Shown here: positions 12,463-40,926 of the stretch, piece after piece | Layout of the letters: each line of letters opens with the position of its first letter | Numbering within the stretch: position 1 is the first letter of the stretch | Source: a virus | Strand: one strand, 5' to 3' | Virus record (IMG/VR): IMGVR_UViG_3300044655_001596 | Coordinates: 13,319 to 77,318 of that record | Length of the DNA: 64,000 nt | Translations under genes and position numbers: made by a program | Notes under the pieces: generated by a model | What the model was told of the DNA's origin: nothing | Database searches by the model: none | What the model saw: only the letters and a program-made list of their open reading frames with translations

Positions 12463-13836
12463 ATGAATGAAACTGACTTCTCAAACGAAAGGTTTGACAG
12501 CATAGTGGCGGCAGGTTGGATCCGTGATCTAGAAAGTTCGGACAGTCGCATACACAAAGAAAAAACAATTGAAAAAGCATTGATGGCCGCCAAACTGGGC
12601 AGTGCCGATGCACAATGTTTCCTCTTTAATTGCTACCAGGCTTACAATCCTTTCTACACATTTAACATCCGTCAGGTGCCTGAGACTGAGGGCCTGACTG
12701 GTAGGCCTAACCCTTGGACAAAATTTTGGGCCTTGTTGGAAGCCCTGCGCACACGATACATCACAGGCAATCGTGCCCGTGACAGTGTTGAATCTCTTAG
12801 CCAAGAGTTTGACTCAGATGAGTGGAACAACTTGGCTCGGCGTGTGATGATTAAAGATCTACGATGCGGAATCTCAGAAAAGACCTTGAACAAAGTGCTG
12901 GGCAAGACCGAATACAAGATTCCTGTGTTTACTTGCCAGCTGGCACAAGACTCCACAGACCAACCCAAGAAACTAAAAGGCATCAAACGTCTGGAAGTCA
13001 AGCTGGATGGTGTGCGTGTGTTGGCAGTGGTTGATGGCAGTAATGTTACCTTGTTCAGCCGTAATGGCAAAGAGTTTGAAAACTTTCCGCAGATTGCAGA
13101 TGCTGTAGAAGATGCTCGCAAACACTTCCAATATGGTCGTGGTACCGGTGGGCGTTTTGTACTAGATGGCGAGATTGTGGGCGAGAGCTTCCAGAAGCTG
13201 ATGAAACAAGCACACCGCAAAAGTGATGCCCGAACTGATGGTATGGTTTATCACATTTTTGATATCATTCCGTTGGATAGTTTCCAAGAAGGGCATTGTA
13301 ACATACAACAGTACAAACGCATTGAATGGATTGATAGTGCCAAGGAGCGTCTGCTTGAAACACCCTGCCTGCGTATTATGAATGGGCTAGAAGTGAACTT
13401 GGACACAGCCGAAGGTCATGATATCATGCAACGGTTCGCTGAAGCATCAGTGGCAGAAGGTTTCGAAGGCATTATGATCAAGAGCATGGATGCACCTTAT
13501 GAGTGCAAACGTTCAGACTTTTGGATGAAATGGAAGCCTACAATTAGTGTTGATCTCAATATTGTGGGTTTTGAGCAAGGAACAGGTCGCAATGAAAATC
13601 GACTTGGTGCTATAATTTGTGAAGGAGAAGACAATGACCGTAGAATTCGCGTTAATGTTGGTAGCGGCTTTAGTGATGCTCTTCGTGATGAGTATTGGGC
13701 CGCAAGGGATAACTTGCTTGGTCACTTGGTTGAAGTCCAAGCGGACGCAGTCACACAAAACCAAGACGGAACATACTCCCTGAGATTTCCGCGCTTTTTG
13801 CGCTTCCGTGATTTTGATGCAGGAAATAAATTATGA
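12463..13836 (+). CDS. ATP-dependent DNA ligase
   Basis: KLDGVR motif I, LDGEI, EGIMIK, WMKWK, SLRFPRF. Confidence 0.96.
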   Translation: MNETDFSNERFDSIVAAGWIRDLESSDSRIHKEKTIEKALMAAKLGSADAQCFLFNCYQAYNPFYTFNIRQVPETEGLTGRPNPWTKFWALLEALRTRYITGNRARDSVESLSQEFDSDEWNNLARRVMIKDLRCGISEKTLNKVLGKTEYKIPVFTCQLAQDSTDQPKKLKGIKRLEVKLDGVRVLAVVDGSNVTLFSRNGKEFENFPQIADAVEDARKHFQYGRGTGGRFVLDGEIVGESFQKLMKQAHRKSDARTDGMVYHIFDIIPLDSFQEGHCNIQQYKRIEWIDSAKERLLETPCLRIMNGLEVNLDTAEGHDIMQRFAEASVAEGFEGIMIKSMDAPYECKRSDFWMKWKPTISVDLNIVGFEQGTGRNENRLGAIICEGEDNDRRIRVNVGSGFSDALRDEYWAARDNLLGHLVEVQADAVTQNQDGTYSLRFPRFLRFRDFDAGNKL

Positions 13837-20899: not shown

Positions 20900-20929
20900 T
20901 AATGGGTTTTCGTGTATAATAAATAACTG

Positions 20930-20989
20930 TGTAGTGCCCATAGTGGGGCTACATCTAAGTCATCTTGCTTATAAAGGAGAAAACAAATG
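20930..20989 (+). promoter_or_regulatory. ROSE-like RNA thermometer in hsp20 leader
   Basis: 5' hairpin TGTAG..CTACA, then TCTTGCTT-ATA-AAGGAGA pairing the SD with a bulged G (U(U/C)GCU motif). Confidence 0.65.
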
Positions 20990-21445
20990 ACAAAAACTCT
21001 CACCCTTCGTAGTTTCGACATTCCCGCACTCACCAAATTTGGTATCGGTTTCGATAACATGTTTGATGAACTCATGCGTGTGAGTACTCAACAATCCTCA
21101 ACCAACTACCCGCCCTACGATATTGTACAAATCAATGACGACGAGTACATGATCAGTGTGGCTGTGGCCGGTTTTGGGCATGACAACCTTACTGTGACCA
21201 AGGACAAAAACTTCTTGATTATTGAAGGCAAGCACAGTCGTGAAACTGTGGAGAATGACGATGCCACTGCAAAATATTTGCACAAAGGTATTAGTGAAAG
21301 AAGTTTCCGCAGAGAATTCCAACTTGCGGATCATGTGGAAATTAGTAATGCTCACCTTGAACTAGGTATTCTCAGCGTTCACTTGCGACGTGAAGTGCCC
21401 GAAGAAGCCAAGCCAAAGACTATTGCTATCACATACACTTCCTAA
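20987..21445 (+). CDS. small heat-shock protein (Hsp20/IbpA)
   Basis: IGFD, NYPPYDI, AVAGF, YLHKGI, PEEAKPK. Confidence 0.95.
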   Translation: MTKTLTLRSFDIPALTKFGIGFDNMFDELMRVSTQQSSTNYPPYDIVQINDDEYMISVAVAGFGHDNLTVTKDKNFLIIEGKHSRETVENDDATAKYLHKGISERSFRREFQLADHVEISNAHLELGILSVHLRREVPEEAKPKTIAITYTS

Positions 21446-28182: not shown

Positions 28183-28219
28183 TTTGGCCTAAATACTTGT
28201 GAACTACAAAGGAGAAATC

Positions 28220-29221
28220 ATGTTCAAACACTTACTGACATTACTGGCCGCTTTCACAGTGGTTACAGCACAAGCACAGTCGACCATCAACGGTGGTGGA
28301 GCAACATTCCCAGCTCCTCTCTATTCAAAGTGGGCAGAAGCCTATCACAAAGCCACTGGCATTCGTATCAACTATCAGAGTGTGGGTTCGGGCGCCGGTA
28401 TTAGAATGACTGAAGCACGAACAGTGACATTTGGTGCTAGTGATATGCCGCTTACAGATGACCGATTGGCCGCCCTGGGTGTGTTTCAATTCCCCACATG
28501 TATTGGCGGTGTGGTGCCTGTTATCAACATAAAAGGTATTGAGCCTGGTTCCATGCGTTTGACTGGCCCGGTGATAGCCGATATCTTCTTGGGCAAAATT
28601 AAAAAGTGGAACGATCCTGCAATCACAGCATTAAATCCCACGCTCAAACTGCCAGATCAAGAAATTACAGTAGTTCGCAGAGCCGACGGGTCAGGCACCA
28701 CATTTATTTGGACCAACTATCTCAGCAAGGTCAGCCCAGAGTTCAAAGCCACCATAGGCGAAGGCACAGCAGTTAACTGGAAGGTGGGCGCCGGCGGTAA
28801 AGGCAACGAAGGTGTTGCCGCCATGGTTCGACAACTGCCAGGATCCCTGGGTTATGTTGAATATGCATACGTTACACAAACCAAAATGAACTGGGTCAGC
28901 GTACAAAACTCAGCTGGTACTTGGGTAGCACCTACTGAAGATGCTTTTAAGGCAGCCGCCGCTAATGCTGATTGGAATCGCACCTACTTTCAAATCTTAA
29001 CAGATCAAAAGGGTCGCGATGCTTGGCCCATTAGTGGTGCTACATTTGTTCTGGTACATCTCAAGCCAGAAAAACCTGAAGATCTCAAAGCAGCGTTGAC
29101 ATTTTTTGATTGGGCATTTACCAACGGTGACAAAATGGCTGATGACCTAGATTATGTTACATTGCCGGCGGCAGTCAAAACCAAGATTCGTTCAGACTGG
29201 AAACGTCTAGGATTGAATTAA
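28220..29221 (+). CDS. pstS: phosphate ABC transporter substrate-binding protein PstS
   Basis: GATFPAPLY, GSGAG, FGASD, RADGSGTT, GKGNEGV, WPI; signal peptide. Confidence 0.97.
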   Translation: MFKHLLTLLAAFTVVTAQAQSTINGGGATFPAPLYSKWAEAYHKATGIRINYQSVGSGAGIRMTEARTVTFGASDMPLTDDRLAALGVFQFPTCIGGVVPVINIKGIEPGSMRLTGPVIADIFLGKIKKWNDPAITALNPTLKLPDQEITVVRRADGSGTTFIWTNYLSKVSPEFKATIGEGTAVNWKVGAGGKGNEGVAAMVRQLPGSLGYVEYAYVTQTKMNWVSVQNSAGTWVAPTEDAFKAAAANADWNRTYFQILTDQKGRDAWPISGATFVLVHLKPEKPEDLKAALTFFDWAFTNGDKMADDLDYVTLPAAVKTKIRSDWKRLGLN

Positions 29222-29334: not shown

Positions 29335-29499
29335 ATGAGTTGGTTCAAACGAATTCCACACCGTTATCCCCCAGCCCCGCCTGCCTCTGCTCCGCATAGA
29401 ACTAGTCCTGCTACTGATCGGGCACTAGAAGAGTCCAAGTCGCTGGGTCCAAAAACCCGTAAGAAAACTGTCAAAAAGCCCCCACTAAATAAGGCATGA
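29335..29499 (+). CDS. small basic Pro-rich protein
   Basis: TAAATA box 5 nt before ATG; overlaps next gene. Confidence 0.45.
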   Translation: MSWFKRIPHRYPPAPPASAPHRTSPATDRALEESKSLGPKTRKKTVKKPPLNKA

Positions 29500-30170
29500 A
29501 ACCCACCATAGCCCTATTCCTGCACGACCCCAAGTGTAGTGTACAAAGCGGTAATGGGCTCATGCGAGCCCTGGGCGATCACTACAAGTTCAAAATATTC
29601 GGGCGCAATCAGCTGGAAGACACATTTTTTGAAGATGTAGACATGGTTGCTGTGCCCGGCGGTATTGGTGACGCAGACACCTTTGACGGGCTGTTCAAAC
29701 ACAGTGCCGAACGTGTGAGGCAATTTGTTGACGGTGGTGGCCGGTATCTAGGAATCTGCATGGGCGCATACTGGGCAGGAAGCGCATATCTTGACATCTT
29801 GGATGGGGTAGATGCAGTACAATATATCCGCCGCCCGGGAACAGACACACGCAGACCACATGCCAAAAACTTGCCTGTGTTATGGCAAGATCGTTATGGA
29901 AGTGTTGAGCCTTGGAAGATGTTTTTTTATGATGGGTGTGCGCTGGTGGGAGACCGTACCAAGTTCAAGACTCTGGCCACGTACATGAATGGCGACGCCA
30001 TGGCAATTATACAAAACAACATTGGCCTAATAGGATGTCATCCTGAAAGTGAACAATTCTGGTACGACAGTTACTCATGGATGCGTGGTCGATATCACAG
30101 AGGACAACACCATACCCTGTTGTTGGACTTTGTAGATCAGTTAATGCACACGAAGCCGAGCAAGCCTTAA
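29496..30170 (+). CDS. BPL-N / class I glutamine amidotransferase-like protein
   Basis: VPGG, YLGICMGAY nucleophile elbow, GCHPE. Confidence 0.85.
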   Translation: MKPTIALFLHDPKCSVQSGNGLMRALGDHYKFKIFGRNQLEDTFFEDVDMVAVPGGIGDADTFDGLFKHSAERVRQFVDGGGRYLGICMGAYWAGSAYLDILDGVDAVQYIRRPGTDTRRPHAKNLPVLWQDRYGSVEPWKMFFYDGCALVGDRTKFKTLATYMNGDAMAIIQNNIGLIGCHPESEQFWYDSYSWMRGRYHRGQHHTLLLDFVDQLMHTKPSKP

Positions 30171-30848
30171 CAGTCTAAACAGGCTGAGCCACATCCAGCC
30201 TATGTCAAACTCCCACCACTTTTTAGAGAGGCGGGCACTCGCTGGTTCCAGGTGGTGGTTGTTGTGCAACTCTTCGCCACCAATAACAATACCCCAAGGG
30301 CTAATATTGCGACTATGATCTTTAGTTTTGCCATTACGATATCCTATCCAATGTCCTACACCGTTGATGACTCCAGCTGCCCAGAAAGGAATCCACAGCA
30401 TCTGAATGCCCCAAATCAACACTCCCCACCAACCAAATATCAAGACATCTAGCATAAAGAGAATGCCAATGCCAAGTCTAGAGTGAGGCTGGTATACGTG
30501 AAGCTCCATCCAATCAGCAGGAGTACCAACACCATATGTATTAACCATATCCGTATCTTTTGATGCTTCATGATATAACCCTGCTCCTTTAAAAAACACT
30601 CTTTTGATTCCATACACATGTGGTGAGTGTGGATCTCCATCCGCATCGCTAAATCTATGATGTTTGCGATGTATGGCCACCCACTGTTTGGTTACCATGC
30701 CTGTGGTCAACCATAACCAGGCTCGCATAAAGTGTTCAAGTATGGGATGAAATTCTATGCCTCGATGTGCTTGGCCACGATGCAAATACAACGTGACACA
30801 AACGATAGTAATGTGTGTCATTGCCAGTGTTGCGATTAGTTCTGTCAT
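30141..30848 (-). CDS. membrane fatty-acid (acyl-CoA/lipid) desaturase
   Basis: His boxes HRGQAH, HRKHH, HNNHH; WWEFDIGW. Confidence 0.93.
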   Translation of the reverse strand: MTELIATLAMTHITIVCVTLYLHRGQAHRGIEFHPILEHFMRAWLWLTTGMVTKQWVAIHRKHHRFSDADGDPHSPHVYGIKRVFFKGAGLYHEASKDTDMVNTYGVGTPADWMELHVYQPHSRLGIGILFMLDVLIFGWWGVLIWGIQMLWIPFWAAGVINGVGHWIGYRNGKTKDHSRNISPWGIVIGGEELHNNHHLEPASARLSKKWWEFDIGWMWLSLFRLLRLARLRVH

Positions 30849-30859
30849 AGTTTATTTAA

Positions 30860-30882
30860 TAAAAAAGCCCCTTTCGGGGCTG
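30860..30882. terminator. terminator hairpin for the minus-strand gene
   Basis: AAAAAAGCCCC-TTTC-GGGGCT. Confidence 0.75.
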
Positions 30883-30884
30883 AT

Positions 30885-31136
30885 TTATTTTGCAGGAGTT
30901 TTTCGTGTTCGTGTTGGTCGAGCCGTTGTGGGTTTGGCAGCTGGGGTTGTTTTGGGTTTAGCAGGTGCTCTTGGTTTTTTAATAGGCACAGGTGCTACCA
31001 CTGAAGCTGGTTCCGATGCTGTTTCGATTGGTTTGGGAAACGGCCAATCGGTACCTGGCGTTTCAATTTTGTAAGGTGCCTTGGTCTCCACTGCTGTTGG
31101 TTTGCCAAAAAAGAATTCTTTAATTTTTTGAAACAT
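30885..31136 (-). CDS. Lys/Pro/Ala-rich small protein
   Basis: AGGAGA RBS, TAAATA box upstream; APYKIE motif, histone-like tail. Confidence 0.7.
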   Translation of the reverse strand: MFQKIKEFFFGKPTAVETKAPYKIETPGTDWPFPKPIETASEPASVVAPVPIKKPRAPAKPKTTPAAKPTTARPTRTRKTPAK

Positions 31137-31201
31137 AATGTTCTCCTATGTTGTATTTAACAATTTAGTGACCATTCACTAGGAAAAACCACCGTTTTAT
31201 A

Positions 31202-31291
31202 TTGCATTGCAACAAGATTGTCATATATAATAGTACATAGGACGCTGGATAGGCCGGGTCCTATAGTAAACTCGCTTAATAGGAGAAACAC
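31202..31291 (+). promoter_or_regulatory. promoter with PhaR-like box and ROSE-like leader
   Basis: TGCATTGCAACA over the -35; TATAAT 31226; hairpin ATAGGAC/GTCCTAT; CTCGCTTAATAGGAG. Confidence 0.55.
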
Positions 31292-31570
31292 ATGTTTACA
31301 GCAGACGCATTCATCGACACCGTTCAAACCGGTAAAAAAACTTGGGTCAACACTTTTGTGACCAATGAGGCCATGAAAGACGCAATGATCAAATTCGTTG
31401 ACAACCAAGCCGACTACACCAAAAAAGCCATCAAGGCTACCACAGACGCCGCAACCACTGTTGCCAGCGAAACTGTCAAAGCTGTGCAAGAAGCTACCAA
31501 ATTTGACTATGTGAAATTTGGCGAAGGAATCATGAAGGCTTACACCGCCCAGTCATCTAAATCAAAGTAA
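31292..31570 (+). CDS. phasin-like amphipathic helical protein
   Basis: Ala/Lys/Thr-rich helical 92 aa; PhaR-like box upstream. Confidence 0.6.
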   Translation: MFTADAFIDTVQTGKKTWVNTFVTNEAMKDAMIKFVDNQADYTKKAIKATTDAATTVASETVKAVQEATKFDYVKFGEGIMKAYTAQSSKSK

Positions 31571-31645
31571 TACTCTAGTACTACTTTTTGACAGCCCCAG
31601 ATTTTGGGGCTTTCTCTTGACCAATAATTCGTCATCTGCTATAAT
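31564..31645 (+). promoter_or_regulatory. operator + terminator + sigma70 promoter cassette
   Basis: AAAGTAATACTCTAGTACTAC; AGCCCCA/TGGGGCT hairpin; TTGACC(31617)-17-TATAAT. Confidence 0.85.
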
Positions 31646-31654
31646 TACTGCATT

Positions 31655-31807
31655 ATGAAGCCAATCCATTTTGTTTTGCAGGCTCCCCGAGAGCGTCGAC
31701 ATCGTGCCCTGTTTGATCAGGACTTGCCGTTCCGCGGTCGTGTGGAGCGGCCAAAGACCGAGTATCGGCGCAGACCCAAACACAAGAATCGCGAGCAACA
31801 AGAATGA
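31655..31807 (+). CDS. ArfA-like microprotein (50 aa, not in ORF track)
   Basis: RALFDQDLPFRGRVERPKTEYRRRPKHKN resembles the ArfA core [28 protein letters not shown]. Confidence 0.55.
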   Translation: MKPIHFVLQAPRERRHRALFDQDLPFRGRVERPKTEYRRRPKHKNREQQE

Positions 31808-32049
31808 AACTTATTGCACCTCTATTGCTGTCGTTGTTGGTGGGTTGCGCTTCGCAATCTTACACACCGCCACCTTCTGTTGCGGCCATGCCCAATGACT
31901 GTGCCAACCGGCAGGCAATCATCAGTTGGTTAGAAACACAAGCCCGAGTTCCTCGTCAAGCATTTGAAAGTGAGAAGCACTATGAACAAACACGCTCGCA
32001 GATTCGCCACCGTTTGTGGCATGTGCGTTATAACTGTCAGCCTGTTTAG
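31804..32049 (+). CDS. lipoprotein
   Basis: Lipobox LVGC; additional Cys pair. Confidence 0.75.
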   Translation: MKLIAPLLLSLLVGCASQSYTPPPSVAAMPNDCANRQAIISWLETQARVPRQAFESEKHYEQTRSQIRHRLWHVRYNCQPV

Positions 32050-33789: not shown

Positions 33790-34365
33790 ATGACCATTGA
33801 AACCACACAAACAATTGAGCAGACTCACACCCAAGCCTTGGCCGACAACGGTATGTATGTTTTCATGGGCGAGGTTGACAATGACAACATCAAACCTATA
33901 ATTGAATGGATCCTGCACGAGAACTTTGTGACCAAGAGAAAACGCAAAGAACTCTTGCTGATGATTTGCTCAGAAGGTGGGGACATGAGTTCGGCATTTG
34001 CCTTGATTGATGTCATGCGCAGTTCTGTCATTCCAATCAAAGTTGTGGGACTGGGGCAGATTGCCAGTGCTGGATTATTGATCTTTTTAGCAGGAACACC
34101 GGGTCGTAGAACGCTCACTCCCAATACATCAATCATGAGTCACCAGTATGCCTGGGGCAGTGATGGCAAACATCACGAGCTGTTGGCCACAATTAAAGAG
34201 TTTGAGCTAACACAAACCCGTATGGTACAGCACTACATAGATTGTACAGGGTTAGATGAAGCCCAAATCAAGCAACACCTGTTGCCACCGCATGATGTTT
34301 ATTTAGGTGCAGACGATGCCTTGCGTTTGGGCATTTGCGACCATATCAGCCAACTGTCTCGTTAA
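33790..34365 (+). CDS. ClpP-like protease (divergent paralog)
   Basis: SEGG, GQIASAG (Ser), MSHQ (His), HDVYL (Asp); TATAAATA upstream. Confidence 0.9.
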   Translation: MTIETTQTIEQTHTQALADNGMYVFMGEVDNDNIKPIIEWILHENFVTKRKRKELLLMICSEGGDMSSAFALIDVMRSSVIPIKVVGLGQIASAGLLIFLAGTPGRRTLTPNTSIMSHQYAWGSDGKHHELLATIKEFELTQTRMVQHYIDCTGLDEAQIKQHLLPPHDVYLGADDALRLGICDHISQLSR

Positions 34366-40600: not shown

Positions 40601-40628
40601 AGAAAGCCCCTTTCGGGGCTTTCATTTT
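40601..40628. terminator. bidirectional terminator
   Basis: GAAAGCCCC-TTTC-GGGGCTTTC between convergent genes. Confidence 0.85.
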
Positions 40629-40855
40629 TACGCCTGATCTACGAACTTTTTGAGTTCTTCGGCCTTGACCACAATTTCTGTGCTGGACGGAAAGTCAGGC
40701 AAAGTTGGGAAGGGTAGCGTACCACGATTGGCATCAGTCAACTTAGAGTGATACTCATCAGTCAATGATTGGCGTTTTTGGAATACTGGCGTCACGAGGA
40801 TATCGTTGGCCATTTTGAGAAGTTCGAGACGGAGCTCGTAAGGTGTTTTGCTCAT
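40628..40855 (-). CDS. conserved phage hypothetical protein
   Basis: MSKTPYELRLELLKMA...AEELKKFV; ACACAGGAGA RBS. Confidence 0.8.
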   Translation of the reverse strand: MSKTPYELRLELLKMANDILVTPVFQKRQSLTDEYHSKLTDANRGTLPFPTLPDFPSSTEIVVKAEELKKFVDQA

Positions 40856-40926
40856 GTTTTTCTCCTGTGTATGTGTGTGTTATCAAGTCCCGCCCTATGC
40901 AGGACAAGATTGCTACACGAGCAAGT

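Follow-up and report, generated by a model that had tools for sequence, protein, structure and literature searches.

A freshwater jumbo phage gene preceded by a PhaR-type operator and a ROSE-like leader

Introduction

Phasins are small, amphipathic, all-helical proteins, rich in Ala, Lys and Thr, that coat the polyhydroxybutyrate (PHB) carbon-storage granules of bacteria. In Betaproteobacteria their genes (phaP) are controlled by the repressor PhaR (PhbF), which binds an operator overlapping the promoter and is drawn onto the granules when the cell starts making PHB, thereby releasing transcription. The PhbF consensus TG[N]TGC[N]3GCAA was footprinted and shown to repress in Herbaspirillum seropedicae, and CTGC-N3-GCAG is the site in Rhodobacter sphaeroides (PMC3206438). 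At the level of translation, the short two-hairpin ROSE-like RNA thermometers of Pseudomonas ibpA (Rfam ROSE_3, RF02523; PMC3669281) place a stable hairpin at the 5′ end of the mRNA, followed by a short hairpin in which a U(U/C)GCU anti-Shine-Dalgarno (anti-SD) with a bulged G pairs imperfectly with the SD. Phage promoters that carry host nutrient-regulator sites are known for phosphate and nitrogen: Pho boxes precede cyanophage pstS and phoA, and NtcA sites occur in cyanophage promoters. The phage lambda cIII mRNA is a thermosensor. In the literature searched, which was limited to one library, we found no report of a phage gene under PhaR, the regulator that senses the physical presence of PHB granules, or of ROSE-type leaders on phage genes.

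Here we examine a small gene in a 64,000-nucleotide stretch of viral DNA (positions 13,319 to 77,318 of IMG/VR record IMGVR_UViG_3300044655_001596; hereafter the window) that is part of a ~350-kb lake jumbo phage. An initial annotation, made from the sequence alone, described a phasin-like gene with a PhaR-like box overlapping its -35 and a leader of the same design as that of the phage hsp20 gene, and inferred that the phage senses host carbon storage and temperature and coats or mobilises the granules. The observation is confirmed, as each of the sequence features described is present where it was placed, and comparison with relatives supports it strongly. The interpretation is only partly supported: the regulatory part is well supported, granule binding by the product is inferred, and mobilisation is unsupported.

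The gene (31292-31570, plus strand, as are its promoter elements, leader and terminator) forms a self-contained unit with promoter, leader, a 92-aa ORF and terminator. An intrinsic terminator-like stem-loop at 31593-31618, AGCCCCAG-ATT-TTGGGGCT followed by a U-rich tail, was found by a terminator scan and closes a monocistronic unit; the next promoter, TTGACC-17-TATAAT, starts at 31617.

The operator and promoter

The 12-mer TGCATTGCAACA lies at 31203-31214 within the 15-mer TATTGCATTGCAACA (31200-31214), a near-palindrome with a TGC-N3-GCA core and flanks, to which no strand is assigned. Its left arm embeds a -35-like hexamer, TTGCAT (31202-31207), followed by an 18-nt spacer and the -10 hexamer TATAAT (31226-31231), such that the site overlaps the promoter. 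The promoter is predicted rather than mapped: the -35-like hexamer aligns with the canonical TTGATC/TTGATT -35 of box-less relatives (loci L006, L048 and L049) at the same distance from TATAAT, the TCATATATAAT block is conserved in many loci, and the transcription start is inferred at about 31237-31238. The leftmost exact RNA contig starts at 31247, which is compatible with this start but is not a mapped 5′ end. RNA contigs from four lake or freshwater metatranscriptomes cover 31221-31545 and almost nothing of the flanks (one run also has a small piece at 30858-30899), although this is only a weak hint of expression, since contigs cannot show level, strand or ends and uncovered flanks prove nothing.

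Within the window alone the box is unremarkable. The core TGC-N3-GCA is not above chance, with 15 sites against about 30 expected, nor are the matches to the 12-mer with up to 2 mismatches, with 18 against 17.8 expected, and the window's own box departs from the PhbF consensus at one position (TA-T-TGC instead of TG-N-TGC at position 2). The significance of the box comes only from comparison with related loci. The box belongs to a palindrome TG(T/C)TGC-N3-GCA(A/G)CA, and TGYTGC-N3-GCA lies at -130 to -50 of the gene in 40 of 62 unique related phage loci, against 0.003 expected per equivalent stretch; in 37 of the 62 the fit to TG-N-TGC-N3-GCAA is exact. The full 15-mer is present in 31 of the 62 loci and never elsewhere in 363 kb of flanks. 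In five complete phage genomes of 343-364 kb the palindrome occurs exactly once per genome, always at this gene, whereas the reversed-pattern control gives 0. This uniqueness led us to reject the box as a generic phage promoter element, and a sigma-54 or LysR-type box was rejected on sequence, there being no GG/GC spacing and no T-N11-A register.

The same kind of box is used at phasin genes of the likely host lineage. Of 35 bona fide Burkholderiales Phasin_2 genes, 33 carry one or two such boxes within 300 nt upstream, and one of these sites, 126 nt upstream of a bacterial phasin gene (L180), is letter-for-letter identical to the window 15-mer; the 15-mer is 8-fold or more above the reversed control in five genomes. 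No PhaR DNA-binding domain was found in the five complete phage genomes, so a host repressor is implied, although binding and repression by PhaR, and their relief by PHB, were not assayed. The assignment of the host to Burkholderiales is inferred from a single auxiliary gene, the phage pstS, whose product has its best bacterial relatives only in that order, at 54-67% identity. The PhaR N-domain was found in 42 of 61 sampled genomes of the order.

Two alternative views of the palindrome, both of which we consider very unlikely, can be weighed against these data. In the first, it is the operator of a phage-encoded regulator, possibly the 92-aa protein itself acting as an autorepressor, and its likeness to PhaR boxes is coincidence or mimicry. 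A unique palindrome directly upstream of a small helical protein gene is a classic autoregulation layout, the box occurs once per genome, and one database protein (P0166) joins a LacI-type HTH to part of the family. Against this stand the identity of the operator class with that upstream of the 33 bacterial phasin genes and its fit to the footprinted PhbF motif, the predicted fold of three long helices with no recognisable HTH or RHH, and the distant family members that keep the protein and lack the palindrome, which would not be expected of an obligate autoregulator. In the second, the gene is not specially regulated but simply strongly and constitutively expressed, the palindrome being a lineage-specific -35-region sequence kept by descent, hairpin I of the leader a generic 5′ mRNA stabiliser and the anti-SD pairing too weak to matter. 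The loci are indeed related by descent, so that counts are not independent, hairpin-I-like stem-loops precede at least three genes in the window, the Rfam scores are below threshold and the predicted melting is shallow (see below). However, the arms of the palindrome are kept while 14 different 3-nt spacers occur and the upstream flanks diverge completely, the box sits in the -35/-10 spacer instead of over the -35 in four loci (L021, L042, L060 and L068), and it is unique in ~350-kb genomes that hold many sigma-70-like promoters.

The box is nevertheless not universal. Six to eight related loci have an ordinary TTGAT -35 and no box, and in the distant half of the protein family, whose contexts were taken from viral contigs, 51 of 53 loci have a T4-late-like ATAAATA promoter and a CA-rich leader with neither box nor anti-SD. 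The protein is therefore not intrinsically tied to PhaR control.

The leader

Hairpin I (31237-31264), at the predicted 5′ end of the mRNA, has a 7-bp outer stem AUAGGAC/GUCCUAU, a bulged G, a 4-bp inner stem and the loop AUAGG, with a folding energy of -18.4 kcal/mol (z = -2.9 against shuffles). Across 52 sequences 7 of its 10 pairs show compensatory changes and 97.9% of cells are paired, in agreement with RNAalifold. Hairpin II (31271-31285) consists of the anti-SD CUCGCU (31271-31276; ROSE motif UCGCU at 31272-31276 with G31274 bulged), the loop UAAU and the SD AGGAG (31281-31285), six nucleotides before the ATG at 31292. UCGCU or UUGCU is present in nearly all of the 52 leaders and 94.9% of cells are paired, but mostly with one-sided C/U changes, so that support for the anti-SD is conservation rather than covariation. 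U(C/U)GCU is kept at a fixed distance from the SD in the phasin-like and hsp20 leaders only, and a variant leader (UUUCGUCUU) re-pairs with the SD in a shifted register, both of which argue against the view that the gene is not specially regulated. A third helix predicted by minimum free energy folding, GUAAAC (31266-31271) pairing with GUUUAC after the AUG, was rejected as unsupported because departures were never compensated.

ROSE_3 is the only Rfam hit in the leader. The match spans 31236-31297 and covers model positions 1-69 of 69, with the anti-SD and SD aligning to the corresponding ROSE_3 helix, but scores 21.5 bits against a gathering score of 43; the same place scores 23.7-36.5 bits (E 8e-4 at best) in 8 of 11 related loci, again below the gathering score. 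The leader of the phage hsp20 gene (20926-20986, plus strand; CDS 20987-21445, with an HSP20 Pfam match) has the same two-part design, a 5′ hairpin followed by CUUGCUU-AUAA-AGGAG, and no PhaR box. A covariance model built from the phasin-like leaders finds it as the second-best hit in the window (28 bits, E about 1e-4). Near Burkholderiales hsp20 genes, this model found nothing at 30 sampled genes and Rfam found nothing at 20. ROSE_3 was not found in 101 Burkholderiales genomes either, but the control genomes also gave no hit, so that this search says nothing on a host origin of the leader.

Temperature sensing is plausible. The isolated hairpin II is the minimum free energy structure of its segment and goes from -5.5 kcal/mol at 15 C to -2.5 at 37 C, yet in the full leader the mean SD pairing probability falls only from 0.61 at 5 C to 0.52 at 42 C. 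Nearest-neighbour models do not capture the non-canonical pairs of ROSE elements, and this shallow curve leaves it undecided whether the SD becomes accessible on warming.

The predicted three-helix protein

The 92-aa product is predicted with confidence (AF2 pLDDT 86.8) to fold into three helices, at residues 4-22, 26-70 and 73-90. The 45-residue central helix is amphipathic (muH 0.37, P = 0.001 against shuffles); across the helices muH is 0.37-0.41, with P of 0.001-0.02 for helices 1 and 2, although this feature is not specific to phasins. The protein has more than 1,100 homologues and 268 clusters at 50% identity, and the family has so far been found only in viral contigs. No match was found in 301 sampled Burkholderiales genomes, where two marginal hits inside large ORFs were treated as spurious, or in 50,697 GenBank phage records searched by megablast with 5 kb and by tblastn with two family members.

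Homology to phasins is not demonstrable. Pfam, PHROGs and NCBIfam scans of the single sequence gave nothing meaningful, with a weak Bac_DNA_binding hit at E 0.063, the window protein has no Phasin_2 (PF09361) hit even at E 10, and PHROGs gave nothing for 79 family members. A profile search of the PDB returned only noise and Foldseek of the model against the PDB found nothing at E below 1. The initial annotation had proposed profile comparison with phasin families as a check of its reading; hhalign against 35 real Burkholderiales phasins gave P 0.02-0.1 (full range 0.017-0.16) with unstable registers, and a reversed control scored as well (18.1). In a phasin-HMM decoy test the family median was 3.7 bits against 3.3 for reversed and 0.0 for shuffled sequences. 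Weak but repeated look-alike signals do exist: Phasin_2 is the only Pfam family hit by several members (5 of 79 at E below 0.01, best 1.2e-4), and the orthologue in one phage genome (G005) is the only Phasin_2-like place in that genome (14.7 bits against a gathering score of 24.9, model positions 16-94 of 100). The nearest named ESM clusters for two members sharing 43% identity are Phasin_2, PHB_acc and PHA_synth_III_E, with scores of 0.83-0.88, which we regard as leads only; the Phasin_2-like clusters flagged by the ESM atlas are bacterial and of ~90 aa.

As to mobilisation of the granules, no PHB depolymerase family (PHB_depo_C, Esterase_PHB) was found in five phage records, namely four complete genomes and the window's own 77-kb fragment.

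These results bear on a further alternative, which is possible but which we consider less likely, that the regulation is real but the product has nothing to do with PHB. It would be an abundant late or general phage protein, for example a virion-internal, nucleoid-associated or chaperone-like protein, which this phage clade has placed under PhaR and a thermometer only to use the host's carbon and stress state as a cue for dose or timing. Besides the missing phasin homology, the absence of a depolymerase or other PHA gene from the phage records searched and the Bac_DNA_binding hit, this view is favored by the late-type promoters of distant members, whose 5′ hairpins and CA-rich leaders are built for high expression, and by the presence of CATAAATA in the spacer of many box-bearing promoters. 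Against it, host PhaR regulons are, as far as described, centred on granule proteins (PMC3206438), the phasin-like look-alike signals occur in two divergent members, the gene does not lie in a structural module in any locus inspected and no PHROG family matches.

Interpretation

We propose, with moderate confidence, that this is a monocistronic gene of a ~350-kb freshwater jumbo phage that is wired into the host's PHB-granule regulon. In this model the host sigma-70 RNA polymerase reads a promoter whose -35 lies inside a single host-type PhaR operator; free host PhaR would bind there and block transcription, and when the host starts making PHB, PhaR would be drawn onto the granules and the phage gene released. 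Translation is probably damped in the cold and eased on warming or stress, together with that of the phage hsp20. The most likely role of the product is a phasin-like coat or chaperone-like protein acting on PHB granules or other hydrophobic surfaces. The phage thus probably reads the host's carbon-storage state, and perhaps temperature, before making this protein. Of these elements, our analysis establishes the anatomy of the locus, the conservation and uniqueness of the operator, its identity with host phaP boxes, the covariation of hairpin I and the fold prediction, whereas PhaR binding, thermosensing, the Burkholderiales host and granule binding by the product are inferences, the last not having been examined by localisation or binding assays.

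A bolder and doubtful extension, though not excluded by the data, is that a widespread clade of these phages has plugged one of its own genes into the PhaR regulon so as to make the product only in cells that are actively laying down PHB. The product would be a new, non-homologous class of granule-surface protein, a "viral phasin", that re-coats the granules, displacing host phasins, PhaR or PhaZ, to steer stored carbon and reducing power towards phage production, with the thermometer shared with hsp20 adding a second gate.

If PhaR control holds, abundant lake jumbo phages can tell whether their host is storing carbon and adjust at least one highly conserved gene to that, which links viral infection to the PHB economy of freshwater Burkholderiales. 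The locus also offers a clean, small, testable system of a 15-bp operator, a 55-nt leader and a 92-aa protein, and as the protein family has more than a thousand members and no annotated relative, assigning it any function would be useful.

Comparison with described systems

Compared with the phaP/phaR promoters of H. seropedicae, the phage locus has the same operator sequence class overlapping the promoter and a downstream gene for a small amphipathic helical protein. It differs in being carried by a phage in which no phaR was found, in having one site where most bacterial phaP promoters have two about 56-60 bp apart, and in that its product is not a demonstrable Phasin_2 member. Relative to phasins themselves, the product shares the small, amphipathic, all-helical character, the richness in Ala, Lys and Thr and a PhaR-box promoter, but at 92 aa it has about half their length of 170-195 aa.

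The leader resembles the experimentally studied ibpA thermometers in its length of about 55-60 nt, its stable G+C-rich hairpin I, in which even the sequence is alike (GGAyGCyG...CGGGUCC), and its short hairpin II that leaves the AUG free. Hairpin II is, however, 2-3 bp shorter, and the gene controlled is not a small heat-shock gene, although the phage hsp20 has a related leader. Like the lambda cIII thermosensor, it would be a phage mRNA whose structure sets translation according to temperature, but cIII is not ROSE-type and works through alternative structures rather than simple melting. As with the Pho boxes and NtcA sites of cyanophages, a lytic phage promoter carries the operator of a host transcription factor that reports the host's nutrient state; here the regulator would be PhaR, which is titrated by a storage polymer rather than responding to a soluble signal, and the controlled gene is not a recognisable host-derived metabolic gene.

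Genomic context and inferred host

The 64-kb window is part of a 77-kb IMG/VR viral contig judged about 22% complete, whose close relatives are complete genomes of 343-364 kb, two of them with terminal repeats; this is, therefore, a jumbo phage. The DNA recurs almost letter for letter in many lake-water metagenomes and has a G+C content of 45-46%. In addition to the gene discussed here, the window encodes PstS, a fatty-acid desaturase, ClpP-like proteins and an HSP20. The gene is surrounded by host-like auxiliary genes (28199-29221, 29496-30170, 30141-30848 and 33790-34365), namely PstS, a class-I glutamine amidotransferase-like protein, a fatty-acid desaturase and a ClpP-like protease, and these neighbors differ between related phages. 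The 80 best bacterial relatives of the PstS belong exclusively to Burkholderiales, at 54-67% identity, from which we infer, but have not proved, a betaproteobacterial host.

Organization of the locus

Every sequence element listed in the initial annotation, which described a box overlapping the -35, a leader built like that of hsp20 and a 92-aa product, is present. The 15-mer TATTGCATTGCAACA lies at 31200-31214 and contains a -35-like TTGCAT (31202-31207) that is separated by 18 nt from TATAAT (31226-31231). Hairpin I (31237-31264) consists of a 7-bp outer stem, a bulged G, a 4-bp inner stem and the loop AUAGG, and folds at -18.4 kcal/mol (z = -2.9). It is followed by CUCGCU (31271-31276), UAAU and AGGAG (31281-31285), with the ATG at 31292. 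The 92-aa open reading frame ends at 31570 and a terminator-like stem-loop lies at 31593-31611, hence the gene is a self-contained unit.

A second σ70-like site, TTCACT-17-TATATT (31175-31203), has its -10 abutting the left edge of the box, such that a start from it would fall inside the operator. Directly after the terminator, a near-consensus promoter with TG, TTGACC-17-TATAAT (31617-31645), drives a 50-aa Arg/Lys-rich ORF (the two together spanning 31617-31807) that has weak DUF7230 and phrog_6310 matches and is conserved downstream in 37 of 80 loci. On the other side, an 83-aa Pro/Ala/Lys-rich protein (30885-31136, minus strand) is transcribed divergently from the same intergenic region as the PhaR box and is kept there in about 18 of 80 loci. 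Small PAK-rich proteins bearing signal peptides lie near the family gene in distant phages (976-1218 in locus L246 and 260-520 in locus L217). By composition the 83-aa protein recalls the histone-like tails of PhaF and PhaM, a resemblance that was not tested.

The PhaR-type operator

The PhaR orthologue PhbF of Herbaspirillum seropedicae binds eleven PHB-related promoters, for which MEME and DNase footprinting give the consensus TG[N]TGC[N]3GCAA, and represses phaP1 and phbF fusions, whereas Rhodobacter sphaeroides PhaR uses CTGC-N3-GCAG (PMC3206438). Taken alone, the core TGC-N3-GCA is not enriched in the window, with 15 sites against about 30 expected, and the case for an operator rests on comparison. 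We retrieved 80 related viral loci and aligned their upstream regions, most of which carry TG(T/C)TGC-N3-GCA(A/G)CA at the -35 position. Among 62 unique loci, TGYTGC-N3-GCA lies at -130 to -50 in 40, against a background of 0.003 per equivalent stretch, and the full 15-mer is found there in 31 and never elsewhere in 363 kb of flanking phage DNA. The arms of the palindrome are kept while 14 different spacer triplets occur and the sequence just upstream is unalignable. The position and form of the operator vary: in four loci (L021, L042, L060 and L068), about 90-100 nt upstream of the gene, the box fills the spacer between a canonical TTGACT and TATAAT rather than lying over the -35; in five (L024, L052, L057, L061 and L066) the arms are separated by 4 instead of 3 bases (TGCTGC-GACC-GCACA type); and six to eight loci have no box and a plain TTGAT -35. 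In five complete genomes the 15-mer occurs exactly once per genome, always at this gene, and the reversed control pattern occurs zero times. It is therefore a gene-specific operator and not a phage promoter motif. A PhaR DNA-binding domain was found in none of these five genomes.

To compare the phage box with those of potential hosts, we collected 35 bona fide Phasin_2 genes from a sample of Burkholderiales genomes, 33 of which have one or, more often, two boxes of the same form within 300 nt upstream. One of these sites (in bacterial locus L180, at -126) is TATTGCATTGCAACA, identical to the window. Where two boxes are present 30-250 nt upstream of the phasin genes (bacterial loci L168-L204), as in most Burkholderiales phaP promoters including those of Ralstonia-related genomes, they are spaced about 56-60 bp apart, although the R. 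eutropha PhaR site has been described as two unrelated 12-bp repeats (PMC3206438). In five such genomes the 15-mer is 8-fold or more commoner than its reversed control, and a PhaR N-domain is present in 42 of 61 sampled genomes of the order. The tallies of phasin genes and PhaR domains include one unpublished genome (G036), from which no sequence was used and whose phasin locus (L195) was left out.

The ROSE-like leader

The only Rfam match in the region is ROSE_3, which is full length but scores 21.5 bits against a gathering score of 43. The same place scores 23.7-36.5 bits in 8 of 11 other loci, where ROSE_3 is the top hit of the 66-kb search (E 8e-4), and the alignment covers both hairpin I (GGAyGCyG...CGGGUCC) and the ACUCGCU...AGGAG helix. 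Across 52 distinct leaders, hairpin I has 10 pairs, 7 of them with compensatory changes, and 97.9% of cells are paired, whereas slid-partner controls collapse to 32-51%. The anti-SD helix is 94.9% paired, but given that the SD cannot vary, support comes mostly from C/U alternation against G and from conservation of U(C/U)GCU. A variant leader (UUUCGUCUU) still pairs with the SD in a shifted register with a bulged G. Isolated hairpin II is the MFE structure, at -5.5 kcal/mol at 15 °C and -2.5 kcal/mol at 37 °C, but in the full leader the predicted occlusion of the SD is partial and falls slowly with temperature. The architecture is that of the experimentally dissected short ROSE elements of Pseudomonas ibpA, which have two hairpins, a stable hairpin I at the 5′ end and a melting hairpin II with U(U/C)GCU (PMC3669281).

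A covariance model of the leaders finds the phage hsp20 leader as the second hit in the window (28 bits). It also finds, at 15 bits, a hairpin-I-like stem-loop with the same GCAUAGGGC loop but no anti-SD, which precedes a 75-aa ORF (40628-40855) on the minus strand (40628-40912 with the stem-loop). The apparent homologue of this ORF lies two genes downstream of the family gene in distant phages (2162-2434 in L246 and 2565-2834 in L217). Hairpin I may therefore be a more general 5′ element of this phage. In searches of Burkholderiales genomes and hsp20 genes we were unable to trace the design to host hsp20 genes.

The predicted three-helix protein

The protein family is large, with over 1,100 sequences at 90% clustering and 268 clusters at 50%, and strongly conserved, with the pattern MF..D..ID.VQ..KK..V..FV followed by FVD.Q..YTK. 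It is so far viral only: the nearest ESM clusters are all viral, and we found no credible match in 301 Burkholderiales genomes, none in GenBank phages and no PHROG. Two members have unusual architectures, P0133 (161 aa) being a tandem duplication of the family domain and P0166 (143 aa) joining a LacI-type helix-turn-helix N-terminus to the C-terminal two thirds of the family, although the latter may be an assembly chimera. With a 79-sequence alignment, AlphaFold gives a confident three-helix model (pLDDT 86.8) with amphipathic helices, and nothing in the PDB matches it.

The signals pointing to phasins are all weak. Phasin_2 is the only Pfam family hit by more than one member (5 of 79), and the only Phasin_2-like place in one of the phage genomes (G005) is this gene (14.7 bits). 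For two members sharing 43% identity, the nearest named ESM clusters are Phasin_2, PHB_acc and PHA_synth_III_E, at scores of 0.83-0.88 that fall below the method's own reliability line. Profile comparison with phasins had been put forward in advance as a check on the phasin reading; when run with hhalign against 35 real phasins it gave P 0.02-0.16 with inconsistent registers, and a reversed template scored as well. Similarly, a phasin HMM scores the family far above shuffled sequences but barely above reversed ones (medians of 3.7, 0.0 and 3.3 bits for family, shuffled and reversed sequences). The likeness is mainly that of amphipathic Ala/Lys/Thr-rich helices and we therefore do not assign the protein to Phasin_2.

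Distant family members

The more distant half of the family (31-49% identity among the aligned representatives) is found in other uncultured phages (loci L207-L286, with the gene at 1501 in most; e.g., L246 1376-1500), where it lies behind a T4-late-like (C/T)ATAAATA box, a different 5′ hairpin (GAAGTTACGGGTTCTTC) and a CA-rich leader, AAACACACACATAGGAG. In 51 of 53 unique loci there is no PhaR box and no anti-SD, and the two exceptions (L210 and L274) have a box directly upstream of the ATAAATA. The protein is therefore an abundant phage protein in its own right, and PhaR plus ROSE control is an acquisition of the clade to which the window belongs. This keeps open the rival reading that the product is unrelated to PHB and that only its dose or timing is tied to the storage state of the host. 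No PHB depolymerase family was found in the five phage records searched, comprising four complete genomes and the window's own fragment, and the proposal that the phage mobilizes granules has no support.

Expression in nature

Contigs of four lake or freshwater metatranscriptome runs from four studies lie on 31221-31545 and almost nowhere else in 30800-31900, and one 151-nt contig (31247-31397) is identical to the window. This provides only a weak hint that the gene family is transcribed in nature.

Interpretation and comparison with known systems

The observation made in the initial annotation thus holds. Its interpretation, that the phage senses host carbon storage and temperature and coats or mobilizes the granules, is supported only in part. 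The reading of the box as a PhaR operator is strongly supported, by comparative evidence; the ROSE-like reading of the leader is supported in architecture but unproven in function; and the identity of the product as a phasin is likewise unproven. Mechanistically, we favor repression by host PhaR that is relieved by PHB synthesis, plus a ROSE-type translational gate, acting on a small amphipathic protein that most likely acts on granule or other hydrophobic surfaces. We consider the regulatory part of this model likely, whereas binding of the product to granules is a tentative proposal that we hold with low confidence. Although neither has been described for PhaR or on phage genes in the literature that we could search, control of a phage gene by a host regulator and ROSE-type leaders are both already known, and the locus described here differs from these known systems in that the proposed host regulator is PhaR and the ROSE-like leader precedes a phage gene.
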